Origin: Acidobacteriota bacterium
Lineage (GTDB): Bacteria > Acidobacteriota > Thermoanaerobaculia > Multivoradales > JBCCEF01
DNA length: 64,000 nucleotides
Reading direction: 5' to 3'
Assembly: GCA_039028635.1 (NCBI GenBank)
Contig: JBCCHV010000005.1
Location: 12,118-76,117, forward strand
The notes under the pieces are model-generated. The model saw nothing but the letters and a program-made list of their open reading frames with translations, searched no databases and was not told where the DNA came from. Below, in pieces: positions 3,744 to 34,625 of the stretch (position 1 is its first letter; each line of letters starts with the position of its first letter). A program made the position numbers and the translations under genes.

Positions 3744-6034
3744 CTACGACCCCTGCTCCGAAGGACTGGTTTCTCGCTCGGGGACAACAAGCTCCACCTC
3801 TCCTCCAGCGGGGAGGGTATCGCTAACGCAGGTCGGTTGCTCCTGGCGCCAATCCCTCCGGGTCGTCGCCGCAGCAAGGTAGTCCGCCTCGGTCATGACG
3901 CATGCGGTGTAAAGCCCTGGTGCCATCCTGGGAATTTCGAGGCTCTTGCTACCAAGCTGCCACGTCACACCATGGCCCCGAGACCATTGCCATAGCCTCT
4001 GCTGAGACAGTGGGATGCCATCCTGGAGAATCACGACCTGGCCTCGCTCGCGGCTCGAGGAGGAGTCAACCTCTCCTTCGAAGCGGATGAAGAGACGTCC
4101 CCATTCTGCGGAGACCTCGAACGTCAGGTCTTCGGAAAAGGGAACGCTCCTGGCCTGAAGGCCGTGCCCGGGCGCACTGACGATCGCGTGGAGTTGTTGG
4201 GCATCGGCTCGCAGGCGAGCGTCGAAGTAGCCGGATAGATCTGTCCTGGCCGAGTCTCCAGACGCGGCGAGGAATGGTTGGACCACTTCGAGATCAACAG
4301 AGGCTCCCGGCACGGGACTACCCTTCTCGGAAACCACGCGGCCACGAATTGCCTGCTTGCTGTGCAGCACGAGCTCCGCCGGCCCCCAGGGAGTCCCCTC
4401 GACGACCGAGGCCATCACGCTGTCACTCGACCTCTCGTCATCGCCAGCGCCCTTCCGGGCGGCCACCGAAACCGCCCCCTCGCGAAACGCCCGGAGCCGG
4501 AACTCACCATCCTCCTCGGAGCGCCCTGAGGCCCTCGCGTCCGAACCCCGCAAGAACACCTGCGCTTCCGCCACAGGGCGTCCTTGTTCATCGACCACCC
4601 GACCGAAGACCTCCGTCTCCGGAAGCACAATGTCGAGATCCGCCTCGCCCTTCGAATCTGCGCGAACCTCGACCCGGTCGCGCAGCCCCTCCAACTCCAA
4701 CTCCGGAACGTCGACCTCGATATCCCACCATCCATCCTCTGGAAGTACCCCGATGAAAGCCCCGTCTCGGTCTGTCGGCGTGTGGGCGCGAGAGATCCCG
4801 GACCGACCACCAAACCAGATCGTGCCTTCCACGGGCTCTTCGCCATAGAGCAACTCCCCGCGGACTATCACGAGATCGAGAGTGACCGCGATACGAGGGT
4901 CGGCAGCGGTCACCATGACATCGGGTCGCCCAAACATCTGGTTCCCCAGGGAGTCCTGCACCTTGACGAGGAATGTTCCTGGCGCTTGGTTCTCGAGCAC
5001 CGTGCGCCCTTGAGCCAAGGCTCCACGAAACGCGGAGTCTCCGTCGGCTGAGCCAGAGAGGTCCGACATGCGAGAGACAGAAACCTGCCACGGCTTGCCG
5101 CGCCAGTCCTCCGGGGGTTCGACCAGGACCTCGATTTCGAGAGGGCGGTAGAGAGTGATGGGCGCCTTCAGACGTACTTCGGCCGAGTCCCAAACTTCCA
5201 GCGGAAACTCTCTCGCCTCCACGAATCCTGGATGAGCAACCTCCAGAACGTAGGCTCCGGAAGCGAGTCCTGCAAGCTGGAAGAATCCATCCCCCTGCAA
5301 GGGCACCTCGAGCACCGGCTTCGCCAGCCGTTGCGCCAACCCAGTATCGGCTCCACGAGGAACGAAGGGGAAGAGCCTAGCGGAACCTTCCGAGGTTAGA
5401 AGTTCGCCGTCAATCGACTCGGCTCGACCAACCAGAGATCCCCCTTCTTTCAAGTCGAAGGGGGCAAAATGCACCACCGAGGCTGGCTTGACCTCGACCC
5501 CGAACTCATACATCGGGACGTAGCCCGCAACCCGAAACTCGGCATCTAGCAATCCCGCGGGCACGTCACAGGACCACTTATCCTCCTCCACGGGGCAGCG
5601 CGCTCGAGAGGTAGGAACCGCACCCGATCGCAGGGGCTCCGGCGAGGAGAAGCGGATTTCGAGACTGCTCGGTAGTTTGCCCTTGCCGTCGAGCAGTTTC
5701 AGCGTGCCCGAGAGTCGCCCCGCCGGCCGAGTGAGAAAGTGGAGCTGCGTGTCTCCCGAGGCCTCGAAGGACTGCCTGCGACTTCGAGACAGGCCTCCCA
5801 TGAGGTTTCCGCCGGAAGCACCAAGGAGGCCAACCCCAAGTCATCGAACGCGACCTCGCGAGTCTCAGGTTCCTCGCCAAGAAGCCGAAGCTGCACCAAT
5901 CCGAGGGCCTCGGCCTCACCCTCAACACGCTCACCTGACAGAGAGACGTGAACGTCCGAGGCTTCCATGGACGGCACCGCCAGCCCCAGGAGCAGAAACG
6001 GGGCAGCCAGGCCGACAGCGAGCGATCTCGTCAT
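3744..6034 (-). CDS. Large secreted protein with repeated carboxypeptidase-regulatory-like beta-sandwich domains; the N-terminal signal-peptide segment is in another frame (frameshift or pseudogene?)
   Basis: 685-aa ORF 3744-5801 with repeated GxVVDxxGxPVxxAxV motifs (FGRVVDEQGRPVAEAQVFL, IRGRVVSEKGSPVPGASVDL). ORF 5699-6043 in a different frame encodes MTRSLAVGLAAPFLLLGLAVPSMEA, a signal peptide. The ATG at 6034 overlaps the upstream gene's stop codon (ATGA). Confidence 0.5.
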
Positions 6035-6384
6035 CCTGGGCAATACCCGTTGCAGTCTGGCTCCTCCGTCTCTTCGACCTCGACGAGGAGGCAGGCACCG
6101 CCGCTGGTTACACAGAGGACGCCATGCATGTCACGAATGTTCTCGCAGTAGATCCCGTCGCCCGTTCCGTAATTCGAAGCGGACTGGCACTTGGTGTCAC
6201 AGGGGCCGAACCAACCGGAGCAGTTTGAGTTGTCTGGAACGCAGTTGAAACAGCCAACCATCCTGGCTCCATGTGCCGCCCAAACGCCACCGAAACCTAG
6301 CAGAACAGTGAGAACCAGAATGGCTCTCCGGCACGAAAATCGGTCCGTTAGTCGAGCGTCGCCCTGGCCCGCGCCACCATACAT
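6031..6384 (-). CDS. Possible small secreted Cys-rich protein (117 aa, about 10 Cys after a signal-like segment), in frame with the orphan Rhs fragment
   Basis: MYGGAGQGDARLTDRFSCRRAILVLTVLLGFGGVWAAHGA/RMVGCFNCVPDNSNCSGWFGPCDTKCQ...DCNGYCPG. Its stop overlaps the ATG of the downstream large secreted protein (ATGA). Confidence 0.3.
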   Translation of the reverse strand: MYGGAGQGDARLTDRFSCRRAILVLTVLLGFGGVWAAHGARMVGCFNCVPDNSNCSGWFGPCDTKCQSASNYGTGDGIYCENIRDMHGVLCVTSGGACLLVEVEETEEPDCNGYCPG

Positions 6385-6906
6385 GTCCCGCTCGTGGCCG
6401 GTGAGCCTCATCCGCTCGCTCGACCCGTTGGGCACGGACTCTTCCCCAAACGGGAAGTAGGTATGAAGCCCCGCACTGCGCCCGTCGGCCTTGGTGATGA
6501 GCCTCGGGGTGCCGAGATGGTCGAGGTGGAAGAACCTCCATCCCTCGGCCGGCCTCCAGGAAGCCAGCAGCTGACCGTCCCGATGGATGTGGTCTTCCCG
6601 GTGGTTCCAGGTGCCGGCGGAGCCTCCGACGGTACCCCATGTGCGCAGCACCTAGCCGCCGAGGTCGCGCAGGGTCCAGGTCTCTTCGATCGGGCTTTCG
6701 GCCCAGTGGAGGGTGTTGATGCGCTCGTCGTCGGCGGTGTAGAGGTAGTAGTCCTCGATGGCGCCGTCGCCGCTCTCCTTGGACCTCAGCTTCGACAAGG
6801 CGTCCCAGGTGTAGGTGTAGCCGGTGGTGCCGGAGCCGAAGTGGAGCTGATTGCCAGCGGCGTCGCAGCCGGCCCCGGTCCAGCGATTGGCGGCCTCCCT
6901 GACCAC
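6031..6906 (-). pseudogene. Orphan Rhs C-terminal core fragment, disrupted by an in-frame TAG and lacking the DPxGL/toxin end
   Basis: NRWTGAGCDAAGNQL..YLYTADDERI..PIEETWTLRDLGG*VLRTWGTVGG..ASWRP..LDHLGTPRL..FPFGE..TGHERD aligns with residues of the full Rhs (TNRLTGAGYDAAGNQL...TWTVRDLDGQVLRTW...). TAG at 6652-6654 sits where the full gene has CAG. The sequence diverges after GHERD. Confidence 0.7.
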
Positions 6907-7010
6907 CGGTCCAATCCTTGACAGCCTTCAGGAACCGCCACCATAAGAGCCCCGCAAGAGCTTTTCCTTCCAATAGTCCTGGAGAAGAGCGAAACTCAAG
7001 AGCGGTTCGA

Positions 7011-7397
7011 CTAGTCGTCCCACTGGAAAACGGTCTCAGTTCCCGCCTCGAACGGAAGATCATCATCAGGATGGAGAAGCCAGCAAACTTGGTAGAGGGT
7101 TGGCCAATCTCGAAGACGTCTCCAAGTGAAATCGACCCTTTCAACCTGTCGATCGAGTGGACCGGTCCAAAGGCGAAATCCTTCGACATACATCTCTCCA
7201 ATCACCACCGCATTCTCCTCCAAAAGAGAACCCAGCAGATCGAGAACGGCTCCCCTAATATCTTCCTGAGACTCAGAATACCCCAGCTCTTGACGCACCG
7301 ATTCGACCAGATCCCAAAAGCCGAATTCGCGTTCCTCGTCGACTTCACTTGTAACTGCCACAAAAATTCGCTTCTTTTGACTCTTTGAGAGTAGCAT
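7011..7397 (-). CDS. Rhs-associated immunity-like protein 2, paralogue of the 7548-7964 gene
   Basis: 128 aa in a local AT-rich patch. Shares GFRLW.G....VERVDFTWRRLRDWP with imm1 (GFRVWPG...VERIRFAWRLLEDWP). Confidence 0.55.
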   Translation of the reverse strand: MLLSKSQKKRIFVAVTSEVDEEREFGFWDLVESVRQELGYSESQEDIRGAVLDLLGSLLEENAVVIGEMYVEGFRLWTGPLDRQVERVDFTWRRLRDWPTLYQVCWLLHPDDDLPFEAGTETVFQWDD

Positions 7398-7424
7398 CGG
7401 CTATTGGCGGAGGGGTTGGAGTAG
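7395..7424 (+). repeat. 30-bp repeat copy B (catcggctattggcggaggggttggagtag)
   Basis: Matches 3642-3671 at 28 of 30 positions. Overlaps the start codon of imm2 on the opposite strand. Confidence 0.7.
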
Positions 7425-7547
7425 CGATCCAGAGCGATCAACCCAACATAGCTACGCAAAAATAAGCCGATGCAATCACAAAGAGGACAGCCGCGAACAT
7501 TAGGTGTGGCCTATCACCTCAATATCGGCACGGCACCCATAGAGGAC

Positions 7548-7964
7548 TCATGGCGGAAGACGACCAGCGTCTCCGTCCCGAGAATAGCTAGCCGGCAGTA
7601 GGTCACTCTCGGTCTCCATCGGAATGTCGTCACCGGCGGGAAAGAAGCAGCAGACATCATCGATCGATGGCCAATCTTCAAGAAGTCTCCACGCGAACCG
7701 AATTCGTTCCACGTGAATATTGAAGTCTCCAGGCCAGACCCGAAAACCACTCTCATAGAGATTTCCGACCTGCATCTTCTTGGATGCCAAGAGCTCTCGT
7801 AAAACTCTCAGAGTCGCCTCCTGTATCGATGCTTTCGACTCGCGGCGACCCAGAAGATCCCTAATATCCTCTACCAGAACGTAGAACTGCATCTCTCTGG
7901 CCTCTTCCAGAAAAATCATCCACTCGGACTCAAGAACTTCAGACTGCTCTACTGTAAGTCGCAC
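7548..7964 (-). CDS. Rhs-associated immunity-like protein 1, the likely cognate of the Rhs C-terminal toxin
   Basis: 138-aa ORF starting 11 nt after the Rhs stop. Low-GC composition. No signal peptide. Confidence 0.6.
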   Translation of the reverse strand: MRLTVEQSEVLESEWMIFLEEAREMQFYVLVEDIRDLLGRRESKASIQEATLRVLRELLASKKMQVGNLYESGFRVWPGDFNIHVERIRFAWRLLEDWPSIDDVCCFFPAGDDIPMETESDLLPASYSRDGDAGRLPP

Positions 7965-7974
7965 CGTGCTACTC

Positions 7975-10900
7975 CTAATTTTCCAGGAACTTTATCTTTC
8001 TGACTTTCAAGCCTGGAAGGTCCAAGTTGATTGTGGAATGACCTGATGCAGACCTGGACTTAGCTCGATAGCTGACAGTTGCGCCCGGAGCCAGCTTCAC
8101 CGTAACTCGCCCTGGCCCCCGAGAGACGACAGAGCCACCTCTCGACAGTCGCCCGAACAACTTCTGTGCAGCCTTCTCACCACCCGGCAAAAATCTAATC
8201 TTCTTACTGGATCCGGCCACCCCAATGAGCCGCCCTGCCGGCCTTACGATCGCGGTAGCCCTGGAGATCGTTGCCTGCTCCGCCAAAGTAAACCCTGTAA
8301 CGAGCGCGCCAGCAGCCACCGCCGAGGGAGCCTCCACGGCAGCATCTCTAAAGAGCTGCAGCCTCTCGGACGGTAAGGCGCTGGAGTCGATGCCCTCGGC
8401 CTCGAGCTCTGCTGCCATGGAGCCGGGATCCGGTTGATCCGCTTCGTCCTCCGGATTTTCGTCGCCCTCGAGGTACTCGCCAAGGGCTGCCTGAAAGAAC
8501 AAGGCAATCTCATCGACTGCACGCTGGAAGGCATTTCGCCCCTGCTTCGAAGCCGGCAGCAGGCCATCGGGATCAACCCACTTGAGGGGGTTATTGAGAG
8601 CGTAGGTGTAGCGATTCAGGGACTGGGGGTTCTTGAGGCTCCCTCCCACGGGGTCGACACTGAGAAACCTGCCGTTGAGGGGTGAGCAGTACCTGGCGTG
8701 CATGTAGTCAAGGTCGTCATCTTGGCCAGGTGTTCCGTGATGATCGCGTTCGTGGCCGGTGAATTTGAGCCTCTCCTCGAGGTGGACGGTGCCGAGCTCT
8801 TCTCCGAAGGGAAAGAAGACCGAGAGACGCGGAATCTGTCCATTGGCATTGACCGAGAGCCGTGGCGTTCCGAGGTGGTCGAGAAGCTGGAGGCGGACTC
8901 CCTCCTGCGGCCGCCACGAGGCCAGCAGACTGCCTTCACGGTAAATGTAGTCCTCGTGGTGGGTCCAGGCCCCGCTGGAGCCGCCGACGTTGGTCCATGT
9001 GCGGAGTACCTGCCCATCGAGGTCGCGCACGGTCCAGGTTTCCTCGATCGGCTGAACGGCATTGCGGAAGGTACAGATGCGCTCGTCATCGGCGGTGTAC
9101 AGGTAGAGATCGTCCTGAGTGCCGTTGTTGCGGCGAGCGCGCTTCATCTTGGAGAGAGAGTCCCACTCGTAAGCGAAGCCCTGAGTGCCGACACCCCAGT
9201 TGAGCTGATTGCCCGCCGCGTCGTAGCCGGCCCCGGTCAAGCGATTGGTGACCTCACTGGCCACCGGGGTCCGAGTCGAGGTCGAGCCGCCCGAGGTGGT
9301 GGTGATCGATCCGAGATTGCCGAAACGGTCGTAACCGTAAGTCTGCCGATCGCCTCCCCCGAGCACCCCTTCCACCAAACGACTGACCGAGTCGTAGCGA
9401 TAGCGCTCGTCACCGAGGGCCTTGACATTGCCGGCACCGTCATACTGATAACTCAGCCCATCGGCGGAAGCTCCAGGTGCGAGCGCAAGCCCGGGATCGG
9501 CCAGACCGTTGAAACGTACGCCCACCGACCGCGGTCGCCGCATCCCCCAGGGATCGCGGGCCTGAAAATAGGTGATGCCGCCGCTATGGGCCACTTCCTG
9601 AAGCATGCCGTTGTCATGATACGAAACCGTCGCCTGCACGCCCGGGTAGCCGCCGACAGCGGTCAGGCTCCCCTGGACGTAGGTGGAGGTGGCGGCACGC
9701 ACGGAGTCGGAGCCGGCGCAGGGGAAAAAGGTGCAGCGGGGAAAGGTCACCTGACGCAAGTTGCCGAGATCGTCCCAGGTCCACCCTTGAGTGAAGGACT
9801 GCAGCGAAGACAGGGCCGTGCGCCGAGAGCTGACCCGCCCGCCGAGCCCACCATAGGCGTAGGTCTCGGTCACCGAGACGTCGATCTCGGGACCATTCGG
9901 GTTCCAGGGAGGCACGAACCAGTTGTGACGGGTGGCCGTCTTGGTCTTGCCCTTCGAACGGTCTAGCGAGTTGGTGCCGATTCCATAGGTGAATGTCTTG
10001 AGGAATCGCCGTAGTCCGGCGCTCTCTCGAATCGACAGCAGACGCTCGGCGCGGTCGAAGTCGAACTCGAGATCGAAGGCACCGGCCGCCGCCCCCACCC
10101 ACTGCCGGTGGGCATGGCCGCGCGCATCGTACTCCCGGTAGAAAAGCGTGCCGTTGCCGGAAAAGCCCAGCTCGGGATGGGTTTCCGAAAGGAGAAATCC
10201 TCGACCGTCATACTGAAAGCGGCGCACCTGGTGACCACCGGTGCGGGGCGTCCGCGCTTCGATCAGGCGATCGGCGGCATCGTAGAAGTAGCTCGTCGTG
10301 ACCTCCGCCCCAGCGTTCCCGGAGGGCTCTTCCACCGCCGTCAAACGCCCATACCGGTCGTAGGTCTCGGTGGTGGTCGAAGGCGTCTCGGCGCCATTCG
10401 TCCCGGTGGCTACCTCGACCGTACGGGCCAAGGTTCGGATGCCCTGATAGGTGAACCGAATCGGATTGCCGTCCGGCAAGGTGAGGGTCCGCGGCCTGCC
10501 GAAGGGGTCATAGCCGGAGTACACGGTTCGAGGATAGGACGATCCGTGGTCACTGGTTCGGCGGGAGGACTGGGACCGCTTCCAACCGTTCGGGTAGTAG
10601 GCCGTCTCGACCTCGCTCCAAACACCATCGGGCAGAAGCTCGCGGTCCTGCCAGACGCGTCCCCAGGGATCGAAAAAGGTATGGCGCTGGGCCAGGGTGG
10701 CACCGCTCGTCTGCCCATTGGGCCGATGGATCACCTTCACCTGGCCAGCCCGGCTCGGCAGGGATCGCAGATAGTCGATCTCGATCCAGGCTCCCTGACC
10801 CGCCGTCGGCTGAATCGCCGTCAGCCGACCGAGAGCGTCATAGGAGTAGTCGGTTCGGACGCCTGCCGGATCCTTGGAATGCCGCACCAATCCGGTGGAG

Positions 10901-13002
10901 GCATCGATTCCCTGATCCAGCGTGAAGAAGTGCTCCGCCCCTGTCAGCGCACTGCCATTGCCCTTCCGATACTCGCTGCGTGAGCGCTGCCCGTGTTGAT
11001 ATTGATGCTTGATCCAGTAGACCGCTGCGGCCGGCACGCCGAGGCCACACACCGGATTGAAGACTCCCACCGATTGCAGATCGCCGCCGTAGAAGCGCTC
11101 CGCCGTCACCTTGCCGAAACTGTCTTTGTTGCGCACCACCACCACATCGTCAGTGCCACGAGTCGTTCCTGCGAGTTGGCGAGAGCGACGCAAGAAGCCC
11201 GTGCCGGCATCGAAGCAGTATTCGGCCTTGACCTCGGAAGCACCCTGCCTCACCGAGGTGTCCGTGAAGGTACCCAAAACCCAAGGGGAAGTGGTCGGCC
11301 AAGGGCTATAGCTGTGGCCTGGTAGGGGGTTGTTGCTGAAGGCGTCGTAGCTGTAAGTGCCGCGGCTCGGGTTGTAGGCCGAGGTCACCGTACGGGCCGG
11401 CCCCAGGGAGGACGAACCACCGGTGGTCACCACCCGGTAGTGGCCGAGGCCATCGAAATCGGAGGACGCGACGTCGGTGGTGCGATTGCCATCGGCCTCG
11501 TAGACCGTGCGTTGCCTTTCGAGACGGCGGTTGGAGTCGTACCAATCGCTGGTGTAGCGCACGTTGCCGAAGGGTTTGAGCTTGTCGCGGCCGTAGTTCA
11601 CGTAAATCGAGCGCCGCAGAGTGCCGCTACCGGCCCGGCCATCCCAGATCTCTTGCGACAGGAACCGGCCACCGTGAGACCTACCTCGCCGGTAGGGCAG
11701 GCCATACTCCCAGGCAGTCGGATCATTCGGAAACATAGGCTTCTCGGTGAAGTGGTGCACCGTGTCGTCTCCGGCCGGCGAGGTCACCGTGATCTGACGC
11801 CCGAAGTCGCCGTTGAGCTGGTTGCGGCTCTGGCGATAGGTCCAGGTGCAATCCTGAGTGCCGAGGTCGAAATCGAAACACTGTCCGTTGCTGTCGAGAA
11901 CCCGCTTGGTCTCGACCGCCAAGGTTTCTTGGTCGGCCAGACTTTCCGGCACGTGTGGGGCTCTCGAGAGCAAGGTGAAGTTCTGATAGGTCCACTCGAT
12001 CAGACCACGAGTCGGGGCCCGCAACTGCCGGATCGCCCCCGGCAAAGAAGCGATGGTCGTCCCGAGCTGATTGCAGGAGCTGTAATAACTCGGCATCTCC
12101 CAGGAGGAGCCGTCCGGGAGATCGATGCGGGTCAACAGGTCGACCATCGCGTTCGGCCCCGTCGGGTCGCTGTGACCGTCGGGATAGGGAATCTGATCGT
12201 CCTCGCAATGGCGCTCGATGGCCGTCTCCTGATAATGGAAGTTGTAAATCGCCCGAGAGCCACCAAAGGCCTGCAAGTTGACCGACTTCACCCGCCATTG
12301 CTGGGTCATCGGCGAACGCTCGAAGTCGACCGTATGCTCCCGGCCCAGCCGATCTTCCAGCTCCCAGTCTGAGCCTGCCAGGTCGACCTTCACCCAGTTG
12401 CCTTGGCGATCTTCCATCCGCGTCAGCCGCCAGCGGCCGTTGGCCTCGTGCTCGAAAGTTCGGATCGTGCCATCGGGAAACTCGACCCGACGGGTCACCC
12501 CTTGGGCACTCAGCCGAAGGTAGGAGTTGTCGCGGCTGTAGAGAAAACCGGTGCCGATAGTCTCCCCGACGTGAAGCGACTGGTAGAAAGCGCTCTCCGA
12601 GCCGTCCGCTCCGACAAAGCGCCAGGGGCCCGGGGCATAGGTGTAGTTGGGCGACAGCAAGGCCCCACCGAGCGACAGGGTCCAGCCCAGACCGGCATTG
12701 CTTTGCCGATTCGGATAGACCTCTGTCAATTCAAAGTCGCCGATTCGGCGGGTCTCCAGATCCCACACCTTGGCGTTGTAGGACAGCGTCAGGCCATAGG
12801 AGAAGCCGCCCGCCACCGGCGTTTCTGAGCCGATCGGCAAGGCCAGAATCAAGTTGCCGTTGAACAACGCCACGGAGTCGATGCCGGAGTAGTCGTAGAC
12901 CTTCTCCGCCGAAAAGCCTCGAGCCTCGATCGGATCCTGCTGGGCAAAGGCCAGCAGCGGGACCCACAATACGGCGAGGAGAACCAGCCACCGAAGCTTC
13001 AT
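7975..13002 (-). CDS. Rhs/YD-repeat polymorphic toxin with N-terminal Sec signal peptide (WapA-like) and a variable C-terminal toxin module
   Basis: 1675 aa. Signal peptide MKLRWLVLLAVLWVPLLAFAQQ. Many YD repeats (YDALGRLTAI, YDRYGRLTAV, YDAADRLIEA). Rhs core end ...PxxxxDPDGL (WVDPDGLLPAS) at about 8552-8596. About 190 aa of C-terminal domain in lower-GC DNA. Confidence 0.9.
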   Translation of the reverse strand: MKLRWLVLLAVLWVPLLAFAQQDPIEARGFSAEKVYDYSGIDSVALFNGNLILALPIGSETPVAGGFSYGLTLSYNAKVWDLETRRIGDFELTEVYPNRQSNAGLGWTLSLGGALLSPNYTYAPGPWRFVGADGSESAFYQSLHVGETIGTGFLYSRDNSYLRLSAQGVTRRVEFPDGTIRTFEHEANGRWRLTRMEDRQGNWVKVDLAGSDWELEDRLGREHTVDFERSPMTQQWRVKSVNLQAFGGSRAIYNFHYQETAIERHCEDDQIPYPDGHSDPTGPNAMVDLLTRIDLPDGSSWEMPSYYSSCNQLGTTIASLPGAIRQLRAPTRGLIEWTYQNFTLLSRAPHVPESLADQETLAVETKRVLDSNGQCFDFDLGTQDCTWTYRQSRNQLNGDFGRQITVTSPAGDDTVHHFTEKPMFPNDPTAWEYGLPYRRGRSHGGRFLSQEIWDGRAGSGTLRRSIYVNYGRDKLKPFGNVRYTSDWYDSNRRLERQRTVYEADGNRTTDVASSDFDGLGHYRVVTTGGSSSLGPARTVTSAYNPSRGTYSYDAFSNNPLPGHSYSPWPTTSPWVLGTFTDTSVRQGASEVKAEYCFDAGTGFLRRSRQLAGTTRGTDDVVVVRNKDSFGKVTAERFYGGDLQSVGVFNPVCGLGVPAAAVYWIKHQYQHGQRSRSEYRKGNGSALTGAEHFFTLDQGIDASTGLVRHSKDPAGVRTDYSYDALGRLTAIQPTAGQGAWIEIDYLRSLPSRAGQVKVIHRPNGQTSGATLAQRHTFFDPWGRVWQDRELLPDGVWSEVETAYYPNGWKRSQSSRRTSDHGSSYPRTVYSGYDPFGRPRTLTLPDGNPIRFTYQGIRTLARTVEVATGTNGAETPSTTTETYDRYGRLTAVEEPSGNAGAEVTTSYFYDAADRLIEARTPRTGGHQVRRFQYDGRGFLLSETHPELGFSGNGTLFYREYDARGHAHRQWVGAAAGAFDLEFDFDRAERLLSIRESAGLRRFLKTFTYGIGTNSLDRSKGKTKTATRHNWFVPPWNPNGPEIDVSVTETYAYGGLGGRVSSRRTALSSLQSFTQGWTWDDLGNLRQVTFPRCTFFPCAGSDSVRAATSTYVQGSLTAVGGYPGVQATVSYHDNGMLQEVAHSGGITYFQARDPWGMRRPRSVGVRFNGLADPGLALAPGASADGLSYQYDGAGNVKALGDERYRYDSVSRLVEGVLGGGDRQTYGYDRFGNLGSITTTSGGSTSTRTPVASEVTNRLTGAGYDAAGNQLNWGVGTQGFAYEWDSLSKMKRARRNNGTQDDLYLYTADDERICTFRNAVQPIEETWTVRDLDGQVLRTWTNVGGSSGAWTHHEDYIYREGSLLASWRPQEGVRLQLLDHLGTPRLSVNANGQIPRLSVFFPFGEELGTVHLEERLKFTGHERDHHGTPGQDDDLDYMHARYCSPLNGRFLSVDPVGGSLKNPQSLNRYTYALNNPLKWVDPDGLLPASKQGRNAFQRAVDEIALFFQAALGEYLEGDENPEDEADQPDPGSMAAELEAEGIDSSALPSERLQLFRDAAVEAPSAVAAGALVTGFTLAEQATISRATAIVRPAGRLIGVAGSSKKIRFLPGGEKAAQKLFGRLSRGGSVVSRGPGRVTVKLAPGATVSYRAKSRSASGHSTINLDLPGLKVRKIKFLEN

Positions 13003-13646
13003 CGCTCACCTCCCGCCGCCACCGTCTGAGGCACGGTCGTCGCCGTGATCGCGAGCGACTCCGAGTCGACCACGAACACGACGTCACCGCCTGCGAATCC
13101 GAGGCCGCGCTCCTGCGCACCGAGGAGACGATGCAGGCGCGAGGGCTCGATCTGGACCCGAGCGTTGGCCTTGCCATCGCCGTCCGCCGACCCGCCGTCA
13201 CCGACCGTCCCCACCGAAACCCGCGCCTTGTCCCCGGGGCGAATCCACATCACCTCCAGCGTGCGGCGAGCGAGCACCAGCTCCGAGCCATCGCCGGCAA
13301 ACGCCGACAACGGAACCGTCAAGGGGTCCAGATCCGGCAACTCTCGAATCACCCACGCACCCGACGAGAGATCCGCCGAAGCCCAGACCGAAAGTTCCGG
13401 AAGGTCCTCCACGCTATCCAGCGAGACTTCGCCGTCCTGGTCATCGTCCCGCAGCGTCAATGACCAGCTCTCGAGTCGAGGACGGTAACCCTGCCGAGAC
13501 CGGCCCACCCCCAGCAGTGCCACCTCGCCACCAGGAGACACACCTGAAATCGAAACCGTCCGGTCGCTTACATCAACCTCCAAACCTGCTAGCGATCCGC
13601 CTACCGACAAAAATCCCAACACCGCCAACATCAACGCTCGATGCAT
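12999..13646 (-). CDS. Secreted hypothetical protein, immediately upstream of and overlapping the Rhs gene
   Basis: Signal peptide MHRALMLAVLGFLSVGGSLAG. GGGAGG RBS. Its stop overlaps the Rhs start (4-nt overlap). Confidence 0.55.
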   Translation of the reverse strand: MHRALMLAVLGFLSVGGSLAGLEVDVSDRTVSISGVSPGGEVALLGVGRSRQGYRPRLESWSLTLRDDDQDGEVSLDSVEDLPELSVWASADLSSGAWVIRELPDLDPLTVPLSAFAGDGSELVLARRTLEVMWIRPGDKARVSVGTVGDGGSADGDGKANARVQIEPSRLHRLLGAQERGLGFAGGDVVFVVDSESLAITATTVPQTVAAGGER

Positions 13647-13702
13647 CACGTCCAACCTCCCAAGAAATGCCCTCGTCCTTCCAGGACAACGTAAAACTGG
13701 AT

Positions 13703-14200
13703 TCAGTTCCTTGCCAAAGCGCTACAGCAAGCCACGTGCCATGGGGGACTTCGCCGTTTTACAGGCGTTTTCGGCGATCGGGCCCGAAAAAGATGTCCGG
13801 AAGATGTCCGGACGGACGTCTTCCGGACGTCCTTTTCTGCCTTTCCGGAGCTGAATTCGAGGTCGGCGAGGGTCTCGAGGCAGGTGGCCAAGCGGTCGAG
13901 GGAGTCGGCCGCCTGGAGGGCGTAGGTCGCCCGGGTGATGTCGCAGGCATCGGCCGGCCGGAGCTGGCGCAGCGTCGCCTCCAGACGGCGCAAGTCTCGG
14001 GCGACGGCCGCGATGGTCGAGGTCGTCGAGCGGTCGGCACCCTCGGGCACCACTCCCTTGGGCACCGGCCGCCCATCGACGACAACCTGCTGGAGTCGCT
14101 GACTGAGCCAGCGCTCGGATCGCTCCTCGTCCTTCTCCAGCGAGGTCAACGCGGCTTCGCGGAGGACCGATGCTCGCCGCGCCTCGTCGTCCCGATTCAT
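13703..14200 (-). CDS. Hypothetical protein (gene B of a two-gene operon), charged, probably coiled-coil
   Basis: MNRDDEARRASVLREAALTSLEKDEERSERW.... Its ATG overlaps the TGA of gene A (ATGA). Confidence 0.45.
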   Translation of the reverse strand: MNRDDEARRASVLREAALTSLEKDEERSERWLSQRLQQVVVDGRPVPKGVVPEGADRSTTSTIAAVARDLRRLEATLRQLRPADACDITRATYALQAADSLDRLATCLETLADLEFSSGKAEKDVRKTSVRTSSGHLFRARSPKTPVKRRSPPWHVACCSALARN

Positions 14201-14724
14201 GAAGCGTTGGCCTGCTTCGGGTGATCCGGGCACTGCTCCGAAAGGCGACGAGCGAGGACGAGGTCGACCTCGGTGATGGCACCGGAGGCCGGCGTGGTGA
14301 GGATCACCCAGGCGGTGTTGAGCACCACCGCCAGGGCCGGCAAGGCACCGGCCGCTTGAATGATCCCGCTGACGAAGGCCGCGAAGCTCAGCGCCGCGGC
14401 AGAGCTCTGGAGCACGAAGGGACGCACCAGACAGCGGTTGTCCTGGGACAGCCGCCAGCCCTCGTAGTCGCTTCGGCGGTCGTAGAGCTTCACGCTGCTG
14501 AGACGAGGCAGCGCGACGGACAGCTCCGGAGCCGCCGTGTCGCCAGTGCCGAGGAGCGCCTCCCGCCCGCGAGTCAAGGTGCTCTGAATGCGCTCGGGCT
14601 TGAGATGACCCGGCAAATCTCCCGGCACCGGGAACGCCGACAAACCGCTTTCCCACAGGAGTTGGTAGTAGGCCACTGGATCCAGCTCGTCCGGCTGCGA
14701 AACGGTGGTTGGAGAAGAGCTCAT
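14197..14724 (-). CDS. Hypothetical membrane-associated protein (gene A), with a C-terminal hydrophobic hairpin
   Basis: MSSSPTTVSQPDELDP...AALSFAAFVSGIIQAAGALPALAVVLNTAWVILTT.... GGGAGG RBS 5 nt before the ATG. Confidence 0.5.
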   Translation of the reverse strand: MSSSPTTVSQPDELDPVAYYQLLWESGLSAFPVPGDLPGHLKPERIQSTLTRGREALLGTGDTAAPELSVALPRLSSVKLYDRRSDYEGWRLSQDNRCLVRPFVLQSSAAALSFAAFVSGIIQAAGALPALAVVLNTAWVILTTPASGAITEVDLVLARRLSEQCPDHPKQANAS

Positions 14725-14861
14725 GGCAACCTCCCAGTCGAGTGAAGTTCGGGACGGGCAGAACCCCGCACAGCGCATCTGAGGAACATGCCCGCCTTCG
14801 CGATTACGGACATACTGTATATTAAAAGAAGTCTTTCGTCAAGTCTTTTGAAGTCAAAATA

Positions 14862-14873
14862 GATCTATAGATC
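14862..14873. promoter_or_regulatory. Perfect 12-bp palindrome GATCTATAGATC in the AT-rich divergent promoter region, flanked by repeated TGAAGTC / AAGTCTTT motifs
   Basis: Read directly in sequence 14821-14890, between divergent gene A (minus strand) and the XRE HTH gene (plus strand). Confidence 0.35.
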
Positions 14874-14959
14874 CGATCTGAAGTCGCTGACGATCGCTTC
14901 TTTCGACCTTCTCCACTGCTATCAACCTCTCTTGCGCACTTTCTGAGAGATCGTGTAGG

Positions 14960-15406
14960 ATGTTTCCAGATATGAGACACACGGCGGACCCCCTCGGCAT
15001 TGCCCTGCGCTCGCTGCGCGAGCAGGCGGGACTGCAGCAGGGCGAGCTCGGCCTCAAGGCCGCGGTGACACAGTCGAACGTCAGTGCGTACGAGTTGGGC
15101 AAACGGGCCCCACAATGGCCAACCCTGCTGCGCCTGCTCGACGCCATGGGCGCCGATCTGCTCGACCTGAGCGTGCGCATGGGAGAGCCGGGTCGGTTGG
15201 AGTCGACCCACGAGGCGCTGCGTCGACTCCTCGGCAACGGGGTCTTCGAGCAGCCCGCGGAGGGCGAGCCGGCAGCGACGACGGAGCATCCGCTAGACTT
15301 CTTAGTTGATGCAGTCATCGATCGACTGACGGAACGCACCGCCCTACGGCGCCTGGTCAAGGCCGAGGCCGTGAAGAGCCCGGTGGTGGAGAGGGAAGAG
15401 CGTTGA
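14960..15406 (+). CDS. XRE-family helix-turn-helix transcriptional regulator
   Basis: Cro/C1-type HTH: LGLKAAVTQSNVSAYELGKRAPQWPTLLRLLDAMG. Confidence 0.8.
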   Translation: MFPDMRHTADPLGIALRSLREQAGLQQGELGLKAAVTQSNVSAYELGKRAPQWPTLLRLLDAMGADLLDLSVRMGEPGRLESTHEALRRLLGNGVFEQPAEGEPAATTEHPLDFLVDAVIDRLTERTALRRLVKAEAVKSPVVEREER

Positions 15407-16473
15407 GCGAGCAGGTTTTCAATCGACTGGACAGCGAAGAGCTCGCCGCCCACGAGCAGGCGGCGCGCCTCGCCGGCCTCGAGGGCGAGGCGAGAGTGGA
15501 TGCCGCCCGCACGCAGGCCGGCTGCCAACGGCGTTCCTTCGTCCAGCTCGCGATGAGCTTTTGCCGCCAGGGCGACGAGCCCCTGCTGTGGGGCCGAGTC
15601 GCCATCGCCGCCGCCGAAGCCAGCCCGCCACCCTCGGGCCCGGAGCTCCTACCGCTCGCCTGGGCGACGCTCGGCAACGCGCACCGCATCGCCGGCGACC
15701 TGCGAGCCGCCGGACGCTGCTTCTTCATCGCCCGGGATTTGCTCGAGGACGTGGCGGATCCGCTGGACCTGGCGCGGATTTACTCGCTCGAGGCGTCATG
15801 GGTTCGCGAAACCCGCGACTTTGGATCCGCGATATCGCTGGTTGAGAAAGCGATGAAGGCAGTCGAAGGTGTCGCGAACGAGAAATTTCTCGCTCGGCTC
15901 GAGGTTCAGGCTGGTCTGGTCATGGTGGACCTGGGAGATCACGGCTCAGCGACTGAGTCGCTTGCCGCGGGCCTTCTCAAGCTTGATCACCAAGGAAGCC
16001 CGAGCCTTCGGTTGATCGCTGCACACAATCTTGCATTCTGCGCCTTTAAGCAAGGTCGCTTCGACGCCGCAATGCGTTTGGTTCATTCATTGCGTCGAGA
16101 CTACTGCGACTATGGAAATCCGAAGCTTCTACTGCTTCGAGACTGGCTTGTGGCGCGTATTACGGCTGGTAGAGGCCATCTAGAAGAGGCAGCGACTCTT
16201 CTGCGCTCAATCTGCAGTGAATGCCAAGAGCAAGGATTCCCGTACCTCGCAGGACTCATAGAACTCGACCGAGCCGGAGTACTAATCGACCTTAGCCAGC
16301 TTGATCGAGCTCTTGAGTCCGCCGCGACTGCGAGCTATGTCTTAGATGCAGCAGGGGCCTCGCAGAAGGCTCTCGCAGCGATCATCTTGCTTCAGAAGGG
16401 AATCATCAAGAAATCGGCACCCGAGCGACTCAAGGAGCTCGTGATCATTGCAAAGCGACATCTGGAGTCCTAG
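15403..16473 (+). CDS. TPR-like repeat protein, coupled to the upstream HTH gene; possible RNPP-like sensor half
   Basis: Alpha-helical repeat composition. TTG start overlaps the HTH stop. The 3' two-thirds (about 15750-16473) is clearly lower in GC than the 5' part. Confidence 0.55.
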   Translation: MSEQVFNRLDSEELAAHEQAARLAGLEGEARVDAARTQAGCQRRSFVQLAMSFCRQGDEPLLWGRVAIAAAEASPPPSGPELLPLAWATLGNAHRIAGDLRAAGRCFFIARDLLEDVADPLDLARIYSLEASWVRETRDFGSAISLVEKAMKAVEGVANEKFLARLEVQAGLVMVDLGDHGSATESLAAGLLKLDHQGSPSLRLIAAHNLAFCAFKQGRFDAAMRLVHSLRRDYCDYGNPKLLLLRDWLVARITAGRGHLEEAATLLRSICSECQEQGFPYLAGLIELDRAGVLIDLSQLDRALESAATASYVLDAAGASQKALAAIILLQKGIIKKSAPERLKELVIIAKRHLES

Positions 16474-16791
16474 CCGTTGGGATCAGCCCCCGGATTCGTC
16501 TCATTGTCCCCACTGCCATTCGCCGAAGCCGTGTCTCCCCCTATCCCCAAGAGCTCGAGGATCCATTCCCACATAGAACGCCTCCTTTAGCCGTGGGCAC
16601 GGCAGCGGCCTCCATGGCCCGCCGGGCCACAGTCCGTTCAATTCTCTCACCTCGCCTCTGCTCGGCGAAGGGGCCAGGGAATCTACGCACGTAATTACGC
16701 GAAGTCGGACCGAGAGGCCGGGCTCGGAATACCATTCGCCCAGGCCGCCTTGAAGGAGACGAGGCTCTCCTCCATGACTGAGCCCGGACCG

Positions 16792-17469
16792 ATGATGCGA
16801 CGCCTCTTCCTGCCCTTCCTGCTCCTCATGGCGATTCCCCTGCCCAGCAGCGCCCAACCGGCGACGGAGGAGTTTCGCTATCGCTGGCACCTGGGGAGCC
16901 TGGTGGGCCGGGTGGCGGGGCTGTTTCTGCCCAACAAGGGCGACGGCGTGATGCGCTTTTCCGAGCAGCCCGATGGCACCCTCCACAGTGAGCTGCTGGT
17001 GACCTCGGAAAAATCCGACGATGGTGAGTTCTGGCGCTATGGCTCGACCATCGACCGCGATTCGCGGCAGGCCCTGAGCGCCTGGTCGGCCTACCGCTGG
17101 CGCGGCAAAGAGAAGGAAAAGCGCGACGACATCGCCGAGCCCGGCGTGCTCGACATCGTCTCCGGCATCTGGGCACTGCGACAGGACACGCCGGAGCGTC
17201 CCCGGCAGCTCACCATCTGGTCCGACGGCAAGGTCTACCCGGTGGTGGTGATTCCGCGCGGCCGCGAGAAGCGCCGTTTCGGCGAGCGCGAAGTGAGCAC
17301 GCGCCACTGGACCATTCGCGGCATCGACGCCCCCGAAGGGCGCCGCTGGAAGGGCCGCCTGGAGCTCTGGCTGAGCGACGACGAGGCCGCCCTGCCGGTG
17401 GAAATCCGCATCTCCCGCAGCCTGGCGGACCTACGCCTCGAGCTACAGCCGCCTGCCGAATCCCAGTAA
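16792..17469 (+). CDS. DUF3108-family exported protein
   Basis: Signal peptide MMRRLFLPFLLLMAIPLPSSA. Family assignment is by resemblance only. Confidence 0.5.
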   Translation: MMRRLFLPFLLLMAIPLPSSAQPATEEFRYRWHLGSLVGRVAGLFLPNKGDGVMRFSEQPDGTLHSELLVTSEKSDDGEFWRYGSTIDRDSRQALSAWSAYRWRGKEKEKRDDIAEPGVLDIVSGIWALRQDTPERPRQLTIWSDGKVYPVVVIPRGREKRRFGEREVSTRHWTIRGIDAPEGRRWKGRLELWLSDDEAALPVEIRISRSLADLRLELQPPAESQ

Positions 17470-17677
17470 CGGCTTCCCCCTGAGAGAACCGCGGCCGGAA
17501 TCCCCTCTCGGCCCAGGCGAAAGTCGGCCCCCGCCCGCCTGGCGGCTTCCAACCCTGGTCCCCACCCCGCTTCATCCGGCCCGCCCGGGACTCCGTAGGG
17601 GCGGCGAGTGCTCGTGCCCAGCTTCGTGAGGCGCGGGCCGAACCAACCGCCGAACCTGCGGCAAGGAGTTTTGAGGA

Positions 17678-19108
17678 ATGTCATCCACTCTTCTGCGCAC
17701 CGCCCTCGTGCTCGCCCTGGTGGCCAGCACCGCGGCCTTCGCCTCGAGCCATCGGGAGGCGCCCTTCATCACCGAAAACCCGAAGGTCGACGCCACCGAC
17801 TTCTACATGTTTCGGAGCTACGAGCCGGGCCGCGATGGCTTCGTCACCCTGATCGCCAACTACATCCCCCTGCAGGACGCCTACGGCGGTCCGAACTACT
17901 TCACCCTCGACCCCAACGCCCGCTACGTGATCCACATCGACAACGACGGCGATGGCGTCGAGAACCTGTCCTTCGTGTTCCGCTCGCAGACTTTCCTGCG
18001 CGGCATCTCGCTGCCGATCGGCGATGAGACGGTGCCGATCCCGCTGATTCAGGCCGGTCCCATCGTCTCCTCGGCGGCGGTCAATCGCTTCGAGACTTTC
18101 CACCTCGACCTGGTGCGTGGACCGCTGGGCAACCCCGCCGAGACCGCACCGGCGACCAACCTGCTCACCGGCGGCCGGCGCTTCGGCAAGCCGATCGACA
18201 ACATCGGCGCCAAGAGCTTCCCCAACTACGAACGCTATGCGGCACCGTTCGTCCATGACCTCAACATTCCCGGCTGCGGCGACGGTCGCGTCTTCGTGGG
18301 CCAGCGCAAGGACTCCTTCGTGGTCAACCTCGGCGAGACCTTCGACCTGGTGAACTTCAATCCGCTGGGAGCGCCCGACAGTCAGCGCGACGATCTCGAG
18401 GATGCCAACATCACCTCCTTCATCCTGGAGCTGCCGACGGACTGCTTGACCGACACCAGCGGTCCGGTGATCGGCGGTTGGACCACCGCCTGGCTGCCGC
18501 GCACCCGCACCCTTTCGGACGATCCGACCTTCGAGCAGCCGGCGGTCGAAACCGGCGATCTGGTGCAGGTGTCGCGCCTCGGCATGCCGCTGGTCAACGA
18601 GGTGGTCATCGGCCTGCCGGACAAGAACCGCTTCAATGCCAGCCGGCCCGACGGTGACGGCTCCTTCGCCACCTACGTCACCAACCCCACCCTTCCCGCG
18701 CTGCTGCAGATCCTGTTCGGCGTCGACGCGCCGTCGAACATCCCGCGCAATGACCTGGTGGCGGCCTTCGTCACCGGCATCGAGGGCCTCAACCAGCTCG
18801 GCTTCGGCGAGATGCAGCGCCTCAACACCTCGATTCCGATCACCGCCGCCGCCGACCAGCGCCCCCTGGGTGTGATCGACGGCGACGCCGCCGGCTTCCC
18901 CAACGGCCGCCGACCGGGCGACGACGTGGTCGACATCGAGCTGCGGGCGGTAATGGGGGTGCTCTGCCACCTCGGCCTCGGCCTGTGCGAACCGGCGGAC
19001 GCCCCGGCGGGGCTGCTTCCCCTGACCGACGGAGCGCCGGTCGATGCGAGCTTCTTCGACAATGCCTTCCCCTACCTGCGGACGCCGATTGCCGGTTCCC
19101 CCAATTGA
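17678..19108 (+). CDS. DUF4331-family exported protein
   Basis: Signal peptide followed by the characteristic SSHREAPFI start of DUF4331. Confidence 0.7.
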   Translation: MSSTLLRTALVLALVASTAAFASSHREAPFITENPKVDATDFYMFRSYEPGRDGFVTLIANYIPLQDAYGGPNYFTLDPNARYVIHIDNDGDGVENLSFVFRSQTFLRGISLPIGDETVPIPLIQAGPIVSSAAVNRFETFHLDLVRGPLGNPAETAPATNLLTGGRRFGKPIDNIGAKSFPNYERYAAPFVHDLNIPGCGDGRVFVGQRKDSFVVNLGETFDLVNFNPLGAPDSQRDDLEDANITSFILELPTDCLTDTSGPVIGGWTTAWLPRTRTLSDDPTFEQPAVETGDLVQVSRLGMPLVNEVVIGLPDKNRFNASRPDGDGSFATYVTNPTLPALLQILFGVDAPSNIPRNDLVAAFVTGIEGLNQLGFGEMQRLNTSIPITAAADQRPLGVIDGDAAGFPNGRRPGDDVVDIELRAVMGVLCHLGLGLCEPADAPAGLLPLTDGAPVDASFFDNAFPYLRTPIAGSPN

Positions 19109-19124
19109 CGAGGAGCCCATCGCC

Positions 19125-19931
19125 GTGAAGAAAGAGCTTCTCGCCAGTGCCCTGCTGTTGTTTCTCGGTCCGCCACTGACGGCCCACGACTTCTGGATCC
19201 AGCCGCAGCGCTTCGAGATCGCCCCGGGGAACCCGATCGGTCTCGACCTGCGGGTGGGGGACGAGGCGCCGGGTCGCTCCCTGGCCTTCGATCCTCAGCA
19301 TGCCGAACGCTTCGCCCTCGTCGGGCCGGACGGCGAGCAGCCGGTGCTCGGTCTCGCCGGCCGGCGGCCGGCGGGCAACGGACGGATCGAGAGCCCGGGG
19401 CTCCATGCCGCCGTCTACCGCAGTCGGGAGACCCCTCTCGAGCTGGCGGCGGATCGCTTCGAGGCCTACCTCGCCGAAGAGGGGCTCGACTCGGTGGTGG
19501 CCGAACGGCAGCGTCGGGGAGAGACCGAGTCCGCGGGCCGGGAGCTCTTCTCACGCTGCGCCAAGGCCTTGATCCGGAGCGCCCGACCCGGCGAGGCGAT
19601 CACTCCGGAAGCGGTCGAGGCCGCCCTCGCGCCGCTCGGCCTCGAGCTCGAGCTGGTGGCCGAGCGCGATCCGACGCGGGCCTCGACCAGCGAGCTGCCG
19701 CTGCGCGCCCTGCTGCGCGGCGAGCCGCTGGTGGGGGTTCGCATCGAAGCGACGGCGCTCTCCGGGGACGGCCGCGTCACCGCCCAGCGCACGGACTCCG
19801 AGGGGCGGGTCCACTTGCCCATCGACGGCCGCGGCCAATGGCTGGTGACGGCGGTCCACATGGAGCCGGCGCCGGCCGATTCGGGCCACGATTGGCGCAG
19901 CCTGTGGGCCTCCCTGACCTTCGAGCGGTAG
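19125..19931 (+). CDS. DUF4198-family periplasmic protein
   Basis: GTG start. [23 protein letters not shown], with HDFW as a typical mature N-terminus. Confidence 0.55.
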
Positions 19932-34334: not shown

Positions 34335-34625
34335 CGGCAAATCCCCTTCCGCGGAGAATGTTGGAAAGTCGGCCCAAAGGTATCTTGGCCGTCGGCGGGA
34401 CGCAAGGACGACGGCGGGAGGAACCACCCCCTCGGCCAGCGGACTGTCTCGGCCGACGGTCCTCGGCAAGGATTCACCTATAAGAATTCAAAGGCATATA
34501 TTCAGTGCCATGACACTCAGCAAAGGGAAACCAAGTACTTTGTTTTTCGTCACTTGCGTGCTATGGTCGCACTTCCTTTGAAGGCTTGATTTCCTCTGCA
34601 ATCTGGGCGTTGATCGGACGGACCC

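Follow-up and report, generated by a model that had tools for sequence, protein, structure and literature searches.

A split HTH/TPR regulator pair with a conserved convergent peptide gene beside an Rhs toxin operon in an Acidobacteriota genome: a candidate peptide-sensing cassette

The window analysed here, a stretch of 64,000 nucleotides from the metagenome-assembled genome (MAG) of an Acidobacteriota bacterium (contig JBCCHV010000005.1 of assembly GCA_039028635.1; positions are those of the stretch), contains a small regulatory cassette. It is built from a gene for an XRE-type helix-turn-helix (HTH) protein, a gene for a tetratricopeptide repeat (TPR) protein whose start overlaps the stop codon of the HTH gene in the four nucleotides TTGA and is preceded by a Shine-Dalgarno-like GGAG, and a short gene running towards the two from the opposite strand. 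The former two had already been described, as a 148-residue HTH protein and a 356-residue TPR protein joined by the TTGA overlap, in an earlier reading made from the DNA letters alone (the sequence-only reading), and the coordinates of the open reading frames (ORFs) and the sequence agree with this description. The same reading had proposed to look for small peptide ORFs nearby, and the convergent 34-codon gene is what such a search revealed. The cassette itself comprises the following features:

14960 to 15406, forward strand: XRE-type HTH DNA-binding subunit, 148 residues from its first ATG
15403 to 16473, forward strand: stand-alone TPR protein, the proposed sensor subunit, 356 residues from a TTG start; the profile of its family aligns over the whole length
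16470 to 16574, reverse strand: convergent 34-codon gene, MWEWILELLGIGGDTASANGSGDNETNPGADPNG, whose stop codon overlaps that of the TPR gene (CTAG) and which is conserved in the paralogous locus L001
16581 to 16587, reverse strand: Shine-Dalgarno sequence AAGGAGG, 6 nucleotides before the ATG of the peptide gene and identical in the paralog

In the NCBI annotation of the same genome the HTH protein starts at its fifth residue (M5, the ATG at position 14972), the start of the paralog agrees with this, and the protein thus probably has 144 rather than 148 residues. It belongs to the XRE/Cro-C1 proteins, because the Pfam families HTH_31 (2.8e-12, 47.2 bits, cut-off 27) and HTH_3 (4.8e-9, 36.6 bits, cut-off 23) both match residues 12-69 above their curated cut-offs. 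The HTH domain, which covers about residues 12-70, is followed by a variable acidic/Pro linker and by a conserved C-terminal helix, EHPLDFLVDAVIDRLTERT, at residues 109-128. Apart from the paralog, no further full-length homologue of the HTH protein was found. As an alternative, the protein could be the antitoxin in a toxin-antitoxin or anti-phage defence module, and it does show matches to HTH models of PADLOC and, in NCBIfam, a match to the Y4mF/HipB antitoxins that stays below threshold (TIGR03070, 42.4 bits against a cut-off of 71.65). However, these matches are generic, the TPR protein next to it has neither a PADLOC match nor a toxin-like domain, and such a module is extremely improbable.

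The TPR protein is 100% identical to AAF604_03395, a hypothetical protein of an Acidobacteriota MAG at the NCBI, and is recognised by Pfam only below threshold (TPR_12 with 26 bits against a cut-off of 30.1, TPR_2, and TPR_MalT). An AlphaFold (AF2) model, for which an alignment of 149 sequences was the input, predicts an all-helical solenoid (pLDDT 92, pTM 0.88) with an N-terminal helical region of five helices (residues 1-75), to which about seven TPR pairs are added (residues 78-355). The model places the protein in the TPR superfamily, since Foldseek matches it to the TPRs of LGN, Rap, KLC, and OGT with E-values between 3e-6 and 3e-4.

The same MAG contains a second copy of this arrangement. 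The paralogous TPR protein, AAF604_19425, is 52% identical to that of the window, and its locus, L001, which is a 2-kb Logan contig, carries an HTH and a TPR gene with the identical TTGA junction, a homologous divergent gene upstream, and a convergent small ORF. The HTH domains are 83% identical and the C-terminal tail helix has been kept. The number of synonymous substitutions per site (dS) between the copies is 1.2-1.6 and thus near saturation throughout, so the duplication must be old. The corresponding non-synonymous value (dN) is 0.12 for the HTH domain, 0.17 for residues 1-130 of the TPR protein, and 0.63 for its residues 131-356. Low dN at a dS above 1 means that both the HTH and the TPR protein are under selection.

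If the HTH and the TPR protein are concatenated they are collinear from end to end with single-chain HTH-TPR proteins of about 490 residues. The loci compared were retrieved with fused HTH-TPR proteins as queries. Among them, an HTH is in frame with the TPR in 78 TPR ORFs, and there are only two true split pairs, both in this genome; in each of these the HTH and the TPR are encoded by separate ORFs that differ in frame. The fused forms are evidence, by the Rosetta-stone argument, for a common function of the two proteins. The collinearity and the TTGA junction of the paralog therefore support the functional pair assumed by the sequence-only reading, and the counts support its remark that the split is unusual; as to its concern that TPR homologues might never adjoin an HTH gene in other genomes, elsewhere the two are not adjacent but fused. 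Judged from this comparison, the pair is best described as a rare, lineage-specific fission of a fused HTH-TPR regulator. Alternatively, the split could be a sign of decay, the locus being a frameshifted and dying copy of a fused gene in which the small ORF and the repeats described below are incidental. That fused forms are the rule and that the cassette is part of an island of atypical composition next to an Rhs toxin locus would fit with such a fate. However, two anciently diverged paralogs (dS >1) have kept the identical TTGA overlap together with the GGAG upstream, and strong purifying selection acts on the HTH, the TPR, and the peptide. Decay is therefore disfavoured and very unlikely. 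Programmed -1 frameshifting at the TTGA junction was also considered and rejected, as neither copy has a slippery heptamer.

A scan of GTDB genomes with a pattern taken from the alignment of the paralogs gave 296 matches and no relative, and a degenerate DNA pattern for the N-terminus of the peptide gave nothing; both scans missed also the two cassettes of this genome, and these two pattern scans yielded no further split or leaderless example from the GTDB representative genomes. A plasmid collection contained no relative of the fused protein.

The TPR gene is not uniform in composition. The sequence-only reading had noticed that its last two-thirds fall to about 55% GC, and in fact the GC content is 72.1% in 15403-15750 and 56.2% in 15750-16473. 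The GC content at third codon positions (GC3) is 0.85-0.90 in codons 1-100 and 0.45-0.60 in codons 160-300, and the core genes of the window have values of 0.84-0.91. The maximum-likelihood change point of GC3 is at codon 131 (nucleotide 15796), where it drops from 0.863 to 0.562 (log-likelihood ratio 18.5), and it coincides with the border between the slowly and the rapidly evolving parts of the protein:

15403 to 15795, forward strand: codons 1-130 of the TPR gene, the conserved part with host-like GC3 (0.86)
15796 to 16470, forward strand: codons 131-356 of the TPR gene, the fast-evolving part with low GC3 (0.56) and about 39% amino acid identity to the paralog

Because the homology to the family continues across the break, the latter is not a junction of unrelated domains. 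The proposal that the sensor is chimeric or horizontally acquired therefore does not hold for a chimera of unrelated parts, whereas a foreign origin is possible, though no donor was found. Nor does recent gene conversion between the paralogs explain why the 5' part is conserved, as its dS is 1.2-1.6 as well. In its GC3 the low-GC3 tract resembles the immunity genes of the Rhs locus (0.50-0.54), and the most probable explanation of the break would be that the gene recombined with an unsampled allele of lower GC. In terms of function, codons 1-130 could provide the interface with the HTH subunit, and codons 131-356 could form a ligand-binding solenoid.

The convergent 34-codon gene is real, coding, and under purifying selection. 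It encodes a peptide with a Trp-rich N-terminal helix (MWEWILELL...NPGADPNG-COOH), and the peptide at the same position of the paralogous locus is 79% identical and ends in ...NPGIDPDG-COOH, so that both paralogous receptors of the genome have a peptide gene of their own. The two genes differ in 25 nucleotides, of which 6, 2, and 17 are found on codon positions 1, 2, and 3, respectively. This corresponds to 14.8 synonymous differences on 23 sites and 10.2 non-synonymous differences on 79 sites (Fisher P = 2e-6). In addition, an independent gene caller predicts the peptide gene on the Logan contig L089. Two further elements are found on its 5' side:

16598 to 16627, reverse strand: 30-nucleotide block GCCCGGCGGGCCATGGAGGCCGCTGCCGTG, with 100% identity to the paralogous locus, compared with about 75% in the adjoining coding DNA
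16689 to 16707, no strand assigned: perfect palindrome CGTAATTACG with GAAGTCG directly behind it, in the spacer to the DUF3108 gene and about 115 nucleotides upstream of the peptide gene

The 30-nucleotide block occurs nowhere else in the window and includes both CCATGG and the near-palindrome GGCCCGGCGGGCC; it may serve the peptide gene as a promoter, an operator, or a 5'-UTR element. No Rfam match and no significant RNA fold (z = -1.3) were found for the 5' region of this gene. The GAAGTCG beside the palindrome is the only site of the AAGTC type outside the main promoter, to which we come below, and as a single site it is weak.

A hint at what the peptide might do comes from the family of the TPR protein, whose size was determined by searching 1.84 billion cluster representatives exhaustively with a profile. 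At E <= 1e-3 this retrieved 24189 proteins, of which 3627 reach E <= 1e-30, and the TPR protein of the window is homologous over its full length (489.5 bits, E 7e-142, profile positions 72-434). A word-indexed protein search with the same protein gave 6-7 matches. N-terminal H..CxxC motifs of the anti-sigma-like zf-HC2 type are present in 116 of the top 149 representatives, seven have an XRE HTH, and 26 have neither, although these proportions are biased, since most of the sequences behind the profile were of the zf-HC2 type. Genes for ECF sigma factors are found directly upstream of the zf-HC2-type members. The family is large and uncharacterised, and in most of its members the TPR domain is joined to a zf-HC2 anti-sigma module next to genes for ECF sigma factors. 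These anti-sigma factors share with the cassette of the window the TPR domain, which is homologous over its whole length, and an adjacent small protein with a D-P-x-G motif (DPxG protein), and they differ in being single chains with an anti-sigma output instead of an HTH protein. On two contigs, L006 (4472-9515) and L090 (1774-6682), the order ECF sigma, zf-HC2-TPR, ECF sigma, small DPxG protein, ECF sigma, zf-HC2-TPR is found, which suggests multi-copy sigma/anti-sigma/peptide modules.

Small DPxG proteins are a common companion of the family. In the fused relative P0006, a convergent downstream gene encodes a protein of 110 residues with a signal peptide, the stretch LWSGWLTRLW, and three G-C-I-x-D-P-x-G-x-C units. 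A convergent DPxG ORF lies within 600 nucleotides at 33 of the 64 fused loci for which at least 150 nucleotides of downstream sequence are available, compared with 35 of 2768 background ORFs, and if a signal peptide is required and the distance is extended to 1.5 kb the numbers are 39 of 78 loci and 2 of 1625 background ORFs. Most of these ORFs are convergent and 20-480 nucleotides downstream, and a few are upstream. The consensus of the unit is (D/K)-(N/A/E)-G-C-x-(I/L/V)-D-P-x-G-x-C, and the last unit is usually not more than seven residues away from the C-terminus. Variants without Cys end exactly in DPxG-COOH, as the peptide of the window does. The latter has the Trp-rich helix and an h-D-P-x-G near its C-terminus but is a divergent variant with only one unit, in which Cys is absent and the G at position -3 is missing. 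In the zf-HC2 loci, a small secreted DPxG protein is adjacent in all five cases examined. The linkage therefore follows the TPR domain and not the output domain, because it is found beside both the HTH and the zf-HC2 forms. Pfam and NCBIfam assign four of the small DPxG proteins, which were searched against them, to no family. P0006 itself is located on a Thermoanaerobaculia contig (L002/L009, 3947-8833) within a cluster of family members, which also contains a 142-residue HTH gene adjoining a 426-residue TPR-like gene on the opposite strand and a shorter second HTH-TPR ORF (7967-8833), whose end overlaps another DPxG ORF (..WSGWLTRLWAEEGCIIDPNGGC..).

The linkage can be read in two ways. The small protein may be the ligand of the TPR domain, or it may be an output that is regulated by it, for example a secreted effector, an adhesin, or an antimicrobial peptide, in which case the TPR would sense a small molecule, as MalT does, or another protein. 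This second reading is the main rival to the first. Regulators commonly adjoin their targets, the small proteins of the relatives are Sec-secreted, Cys-rich, repetitive, and effector-like, and the perfect conservation of the 30-nucleotide block upstream of the peptide gene is what would be expected for a tightly regulated target. The TPR_MalT match, although weak, points in the same direction. However, the association spans two unrelated output modules, HTH and zf-HC2, which is more typical of a pair of sensor and ligand. In addition, the leaderless 34-residue peptide of the window is unlikely to be a secreted effector, and the nearest structural matches of the TPR fold are peptide binders, namely LGN with its ligands and Rap with the Phr pheromones. 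A regulated output thus seems rather unlikely to us, although it deserves to be taken seriously.

The DNA between the HTH gene and the genes running in the opposite direction has the appearance of a shared control region. It and the operon on its other side consist of the following features:

14725 to 14971, no strand assigned: divergent control region between the PCD-like gene (start at 14724, reverse strand) and the HTH gene, holding the AT-richest stretch of the window
14814 to 14842, reverse strand: sigma-70-like promoter (TTGACG, 17 nucleotides, TACAGT) pointing to the PCD-like/Rhs operon, with its -35 box overlapping an AAGTC repeat
14827 to 14886, no strand assigned: four AAGTC motifs (14829, 14841, 14851, and 14881), two of them as AAGTCTTT 12 nucleotides apart; candidate operator half-sites
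14862 to 14873, no strand assigned: perfect 12-bp palindrome GATCTATAGATC, occurring once in the window
7975 to 14724, reverse strand: divergent candidate target operon with the PCD-like gene (14724-14197), a 165-residue ORF (14200-13703), a 218-residue protein (13655-12999), and a 1675-residue Rhs/YD-repeat toxin (13002-7975)

With 28.6% GC against a window mean of 66.3%, positions 14803-14872 are the 70-bp stretch with the lowest GC content of the entire 64 kb. The AT-richest stretch is therefore indeed located upstream of the HTH gene, as the sequence-only reading had stated, although the positions given there, 14821-14890, have 34.3% GC and are slightly off the true minimum. The second AT-richest 70-bp stretch (34478-34547, 35.7% GC) is found between the ORFs 32481-34469 on the reverse and 34626-37034 on the forward strand. 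As candidate operators, the sequence-only reading had named the 12-bp palindrome and the TGAAGTC repeats, which are present at 14849 and 14879 and thus 30 bp apart. Both elements exist, but they fared differently in the comparison with the paralog. The palindrome is absent from the paralogous promoter and was rejected as a conserved operator. The AAGTC motif, in contrast, is conserved: the four copies between 14827 and 14886 compare with 0.14 expected from the local composition (P = 1e-5), and the paralogous spacer contains seven AAGTC/GACTT, some of them as inverted pairs, compared with 0.48 expected (P = 7e-7).

The divergent operon is tightly packed, with the PCD-like gene followed by two ORFs and then by the Rhs gene. 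The PCD-like protein resembles pterin-4a-carbinolamine dehydratase (DCoH) and has an N-terminal extension of about 75 residues. The paralogous cassette (L001, 1-84) has retained the N-terminus of this protein (..AYYQLLWESGL..), so that the gene belongs to the duplicated module. The divergent arrangement and the conservation of the first gene at both cassettes make the PCD-like/Rhs operon the candidate target of the regulation.

The Rhs gene is part of a polymorphic-toxin locus (6031-13002, reverse strand; Rhs/YD protein at 7975-13002). Beyond it there are two paralogous immunity-like genes of low GC (7548-7964 and 7011-7397, GC3 0.50-0.54) as well as an orphan cassette for an Rhs C-terminus (6031-6906) that seems to extend over two frames. 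From about 3744 to 16650, that is across a 685-residue ORF, the Rhs locus, and the regulator cassette, GC3 is 0.70-0.80 compared with 0.84-0.91 in the flanking genes, which suggests a genomic island of about 13 kb with the peptide gene at its right edge. Further downstream (16750-19931), genes for DUF3108, DUF4331 (450 bits), and DUF4198 proteins have host-like GC3 and lie outside the cassette.

Taken together, we propose, as the reading with the best support, a cassette of three parts, a TPR receptor, an HTH subunit, and a DPxG peptide, in which the occupancy of the TPR protein by the peptide controls the HTH protein; in our judgement this proposal has an even chance of being correct. The XRE-type HTH protein would bind DNA, and the translationally coupled TPR protein would be its sensor subunit, with the conserved N-terminal third of the TPR protein holding the C-terminal helix of the HTH protein. 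The convergent gene would encode the cognate DPxG peptide of the family, which the fast-evolving solenoid might bind via the Trp-rich helix and/or the C-terminal ...DPxG. Binding of the peptide could then switch the affinity of the HTH protein for the AAGTC repeats that overlap the divergent -35 box. Given that the control region is presumably common to the cassette and to the divergent PCD-like/Rhs toxin operon, this switch would act on the cassette itself as well as on that operon.

Several observations weigh against this proposal. The peptides of the window and of L001 have no signal peptide, unlike the small proteins of all relatives, so that extracellular signalling by the copy of the window is doubtful. 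Their unit, N-P-G-h-D-P-x-G, also deviates from the N-G-C-x-h-D-P-x-G-x-C of the family and lacks the Cys. About half of the relatives have no such ORF, though many of those contigs are truncated, and genetic linkage would be expected equally if the small protein were merely a regulated product. Furthermore, the sigma-70-like promoter is a weak consensus match (one found, 0.6 expected), and the regulated target is deduced from two paralogous loci of one genome.

The sequence-only reading had seen in the cassette a split version of the RNPP quorum-sensing regulators (RRNPPA in the wider sense). This identity was not borne out. In Pfam and NCBIfam, nothing specific for RNPP matches the TPR protein, and neither the profile search against the PDB nor Foldseek is specific for Rap. 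The former lists kinesin light chain first (4e-8), with Rap105 at 1.3e-3, RapH at 0.03, and the Rap proteins together ranging from 1e-3 to 0.5, and in the latter Rap (TM 0.54-0.64) and the eukaryotic LGN/Pins (TM 0.55-0.66) cover the same range. PlcR, NprR, PrgX, Rgg, and AimR are not among the top 50 Foldseek matches of either the TPR protein of the window or a fused relative. RRNPPA systems are treated as a feature of the Bacillota including their mobile elements and phages (PMC10075063, PMC9765709), and tandem propeptides have been described for them as well (PMC11343458). In the literature that was searched, we found no paper pairing RRNPP with Acidobacteria.

There are nevertheless clear parallels. 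In both cases an XRE HTH goes together with a cytoplasmic sensor of the TPR type, to which it is fused in the relatives, and a small gene is adjacent, which in the DPxG relatives encodes a signal peptide and tandem repeated units. Also, there are paralogous pairs of receptor and peptide within one genome, and Rap is among the best fold matches. The differences concern the host, an Acidobacteriota and thus a diderm, the receptor, which is split into two proteins here, and the Trp helix and G-C-x-h-D-P-x-G-x-C motif, which are unlike the known pheromones. In addition, the conserved 34-codon gene of the window encodes no export signal, whereas the small proteins of the relatives have Sec-type signal peptides, and this type of sensor is in most cases found in fusion with an anti-sigma module. 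For the split version the closest analogy is Rap-Phr, as in RapF-ComA. Rap, too, is a TPR protein on its own, begins with a helical domain, and contacts a separate DNA-binding protein that it regulates, and the short peptide that controls it is encoded next to it; the Foldseek matches to Rap include 3ulq, 4gyo, and 8rsu, with sequence identities of 10-14%. However, the partner in the window is not a response regulator but an XRE HTH protein whose gene lies upstream, with translational coupling between the two, and the peptide gene is convergent and not co-directional. By analogy, the cassette would thus be similar to RNPP in its logic, with Rap-Phr acting on a separate DNA-binding partner as the nearest case, but it is not classifiable as a member.

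Another precedent for a separate TPR protein is provided by the class II chaperones of type III secretion (IpgC-MxiE, SicA-InvF), which bind a small exported protein and control a transcription factor. By analogy, the TPR protein could bind the small protein before export, and export would free it for its HTH or anti-sigma partner. The separation of the TPR from the DNA-binding protein in the window and the combination of signal peptides with cytoplasmic receptors in the relatives would be consistent with such a coupling. In contrast, the peptide of the window has no export signal, the neighbourhood of the cassette showed no genes for a secretion system, and Sec substrates are not known to be read in this manner. 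The chaperone systems differ further in their AraC-type partners and much shorter TPR proteins of three repeats, and the window offers no type III secretion context. Regulation coupled to export is therefore unlikely.

If the comparison is extended from the window to the family, it could tentatively be imagined, as a possibility that we would not yet favour, that the cassette belongs to a widespread and so far undescribed kind of peptide signalling in Acidobacteriota and other soil diderms. Cytoplasmic TPR receptors with HTH or zf-HC2/ECF outputs would sense a linked, ribosomally synthesised peptide derived from a secreted precursor with tandem, probably disulfide-closed C-x-h-D-P-x-G-x-C units, which would be an analogue of RRNPP that arose outside the Bacillota, and the window would represent its unique split and leaderless variant in front of an Rhs toxin operon. 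New here is the previously unannotated, cognate 34-codon gene beside the split HTH/TPR pair, together with a receptor family of thousands of clusters in soil metagenomes that has two kinds of transcription output, HTH and anti-sigma, and a linked DPxG gene. If the small proteins are targets only, this would still be a new conserved module of regulator and target. If they are ligands, however, peptide signalling would be opened up in the Acidobacteriota, a dominant but poorly understood phylum of soil, and there would be a candidate signal for a large class of soluble anti-sigma factors. In that case, the naturally split receptor of the window would be convenient for dissecting how the occupancy of a TPR is relayed to a DNA-binding module, which possibly controls an Rhs toxin.

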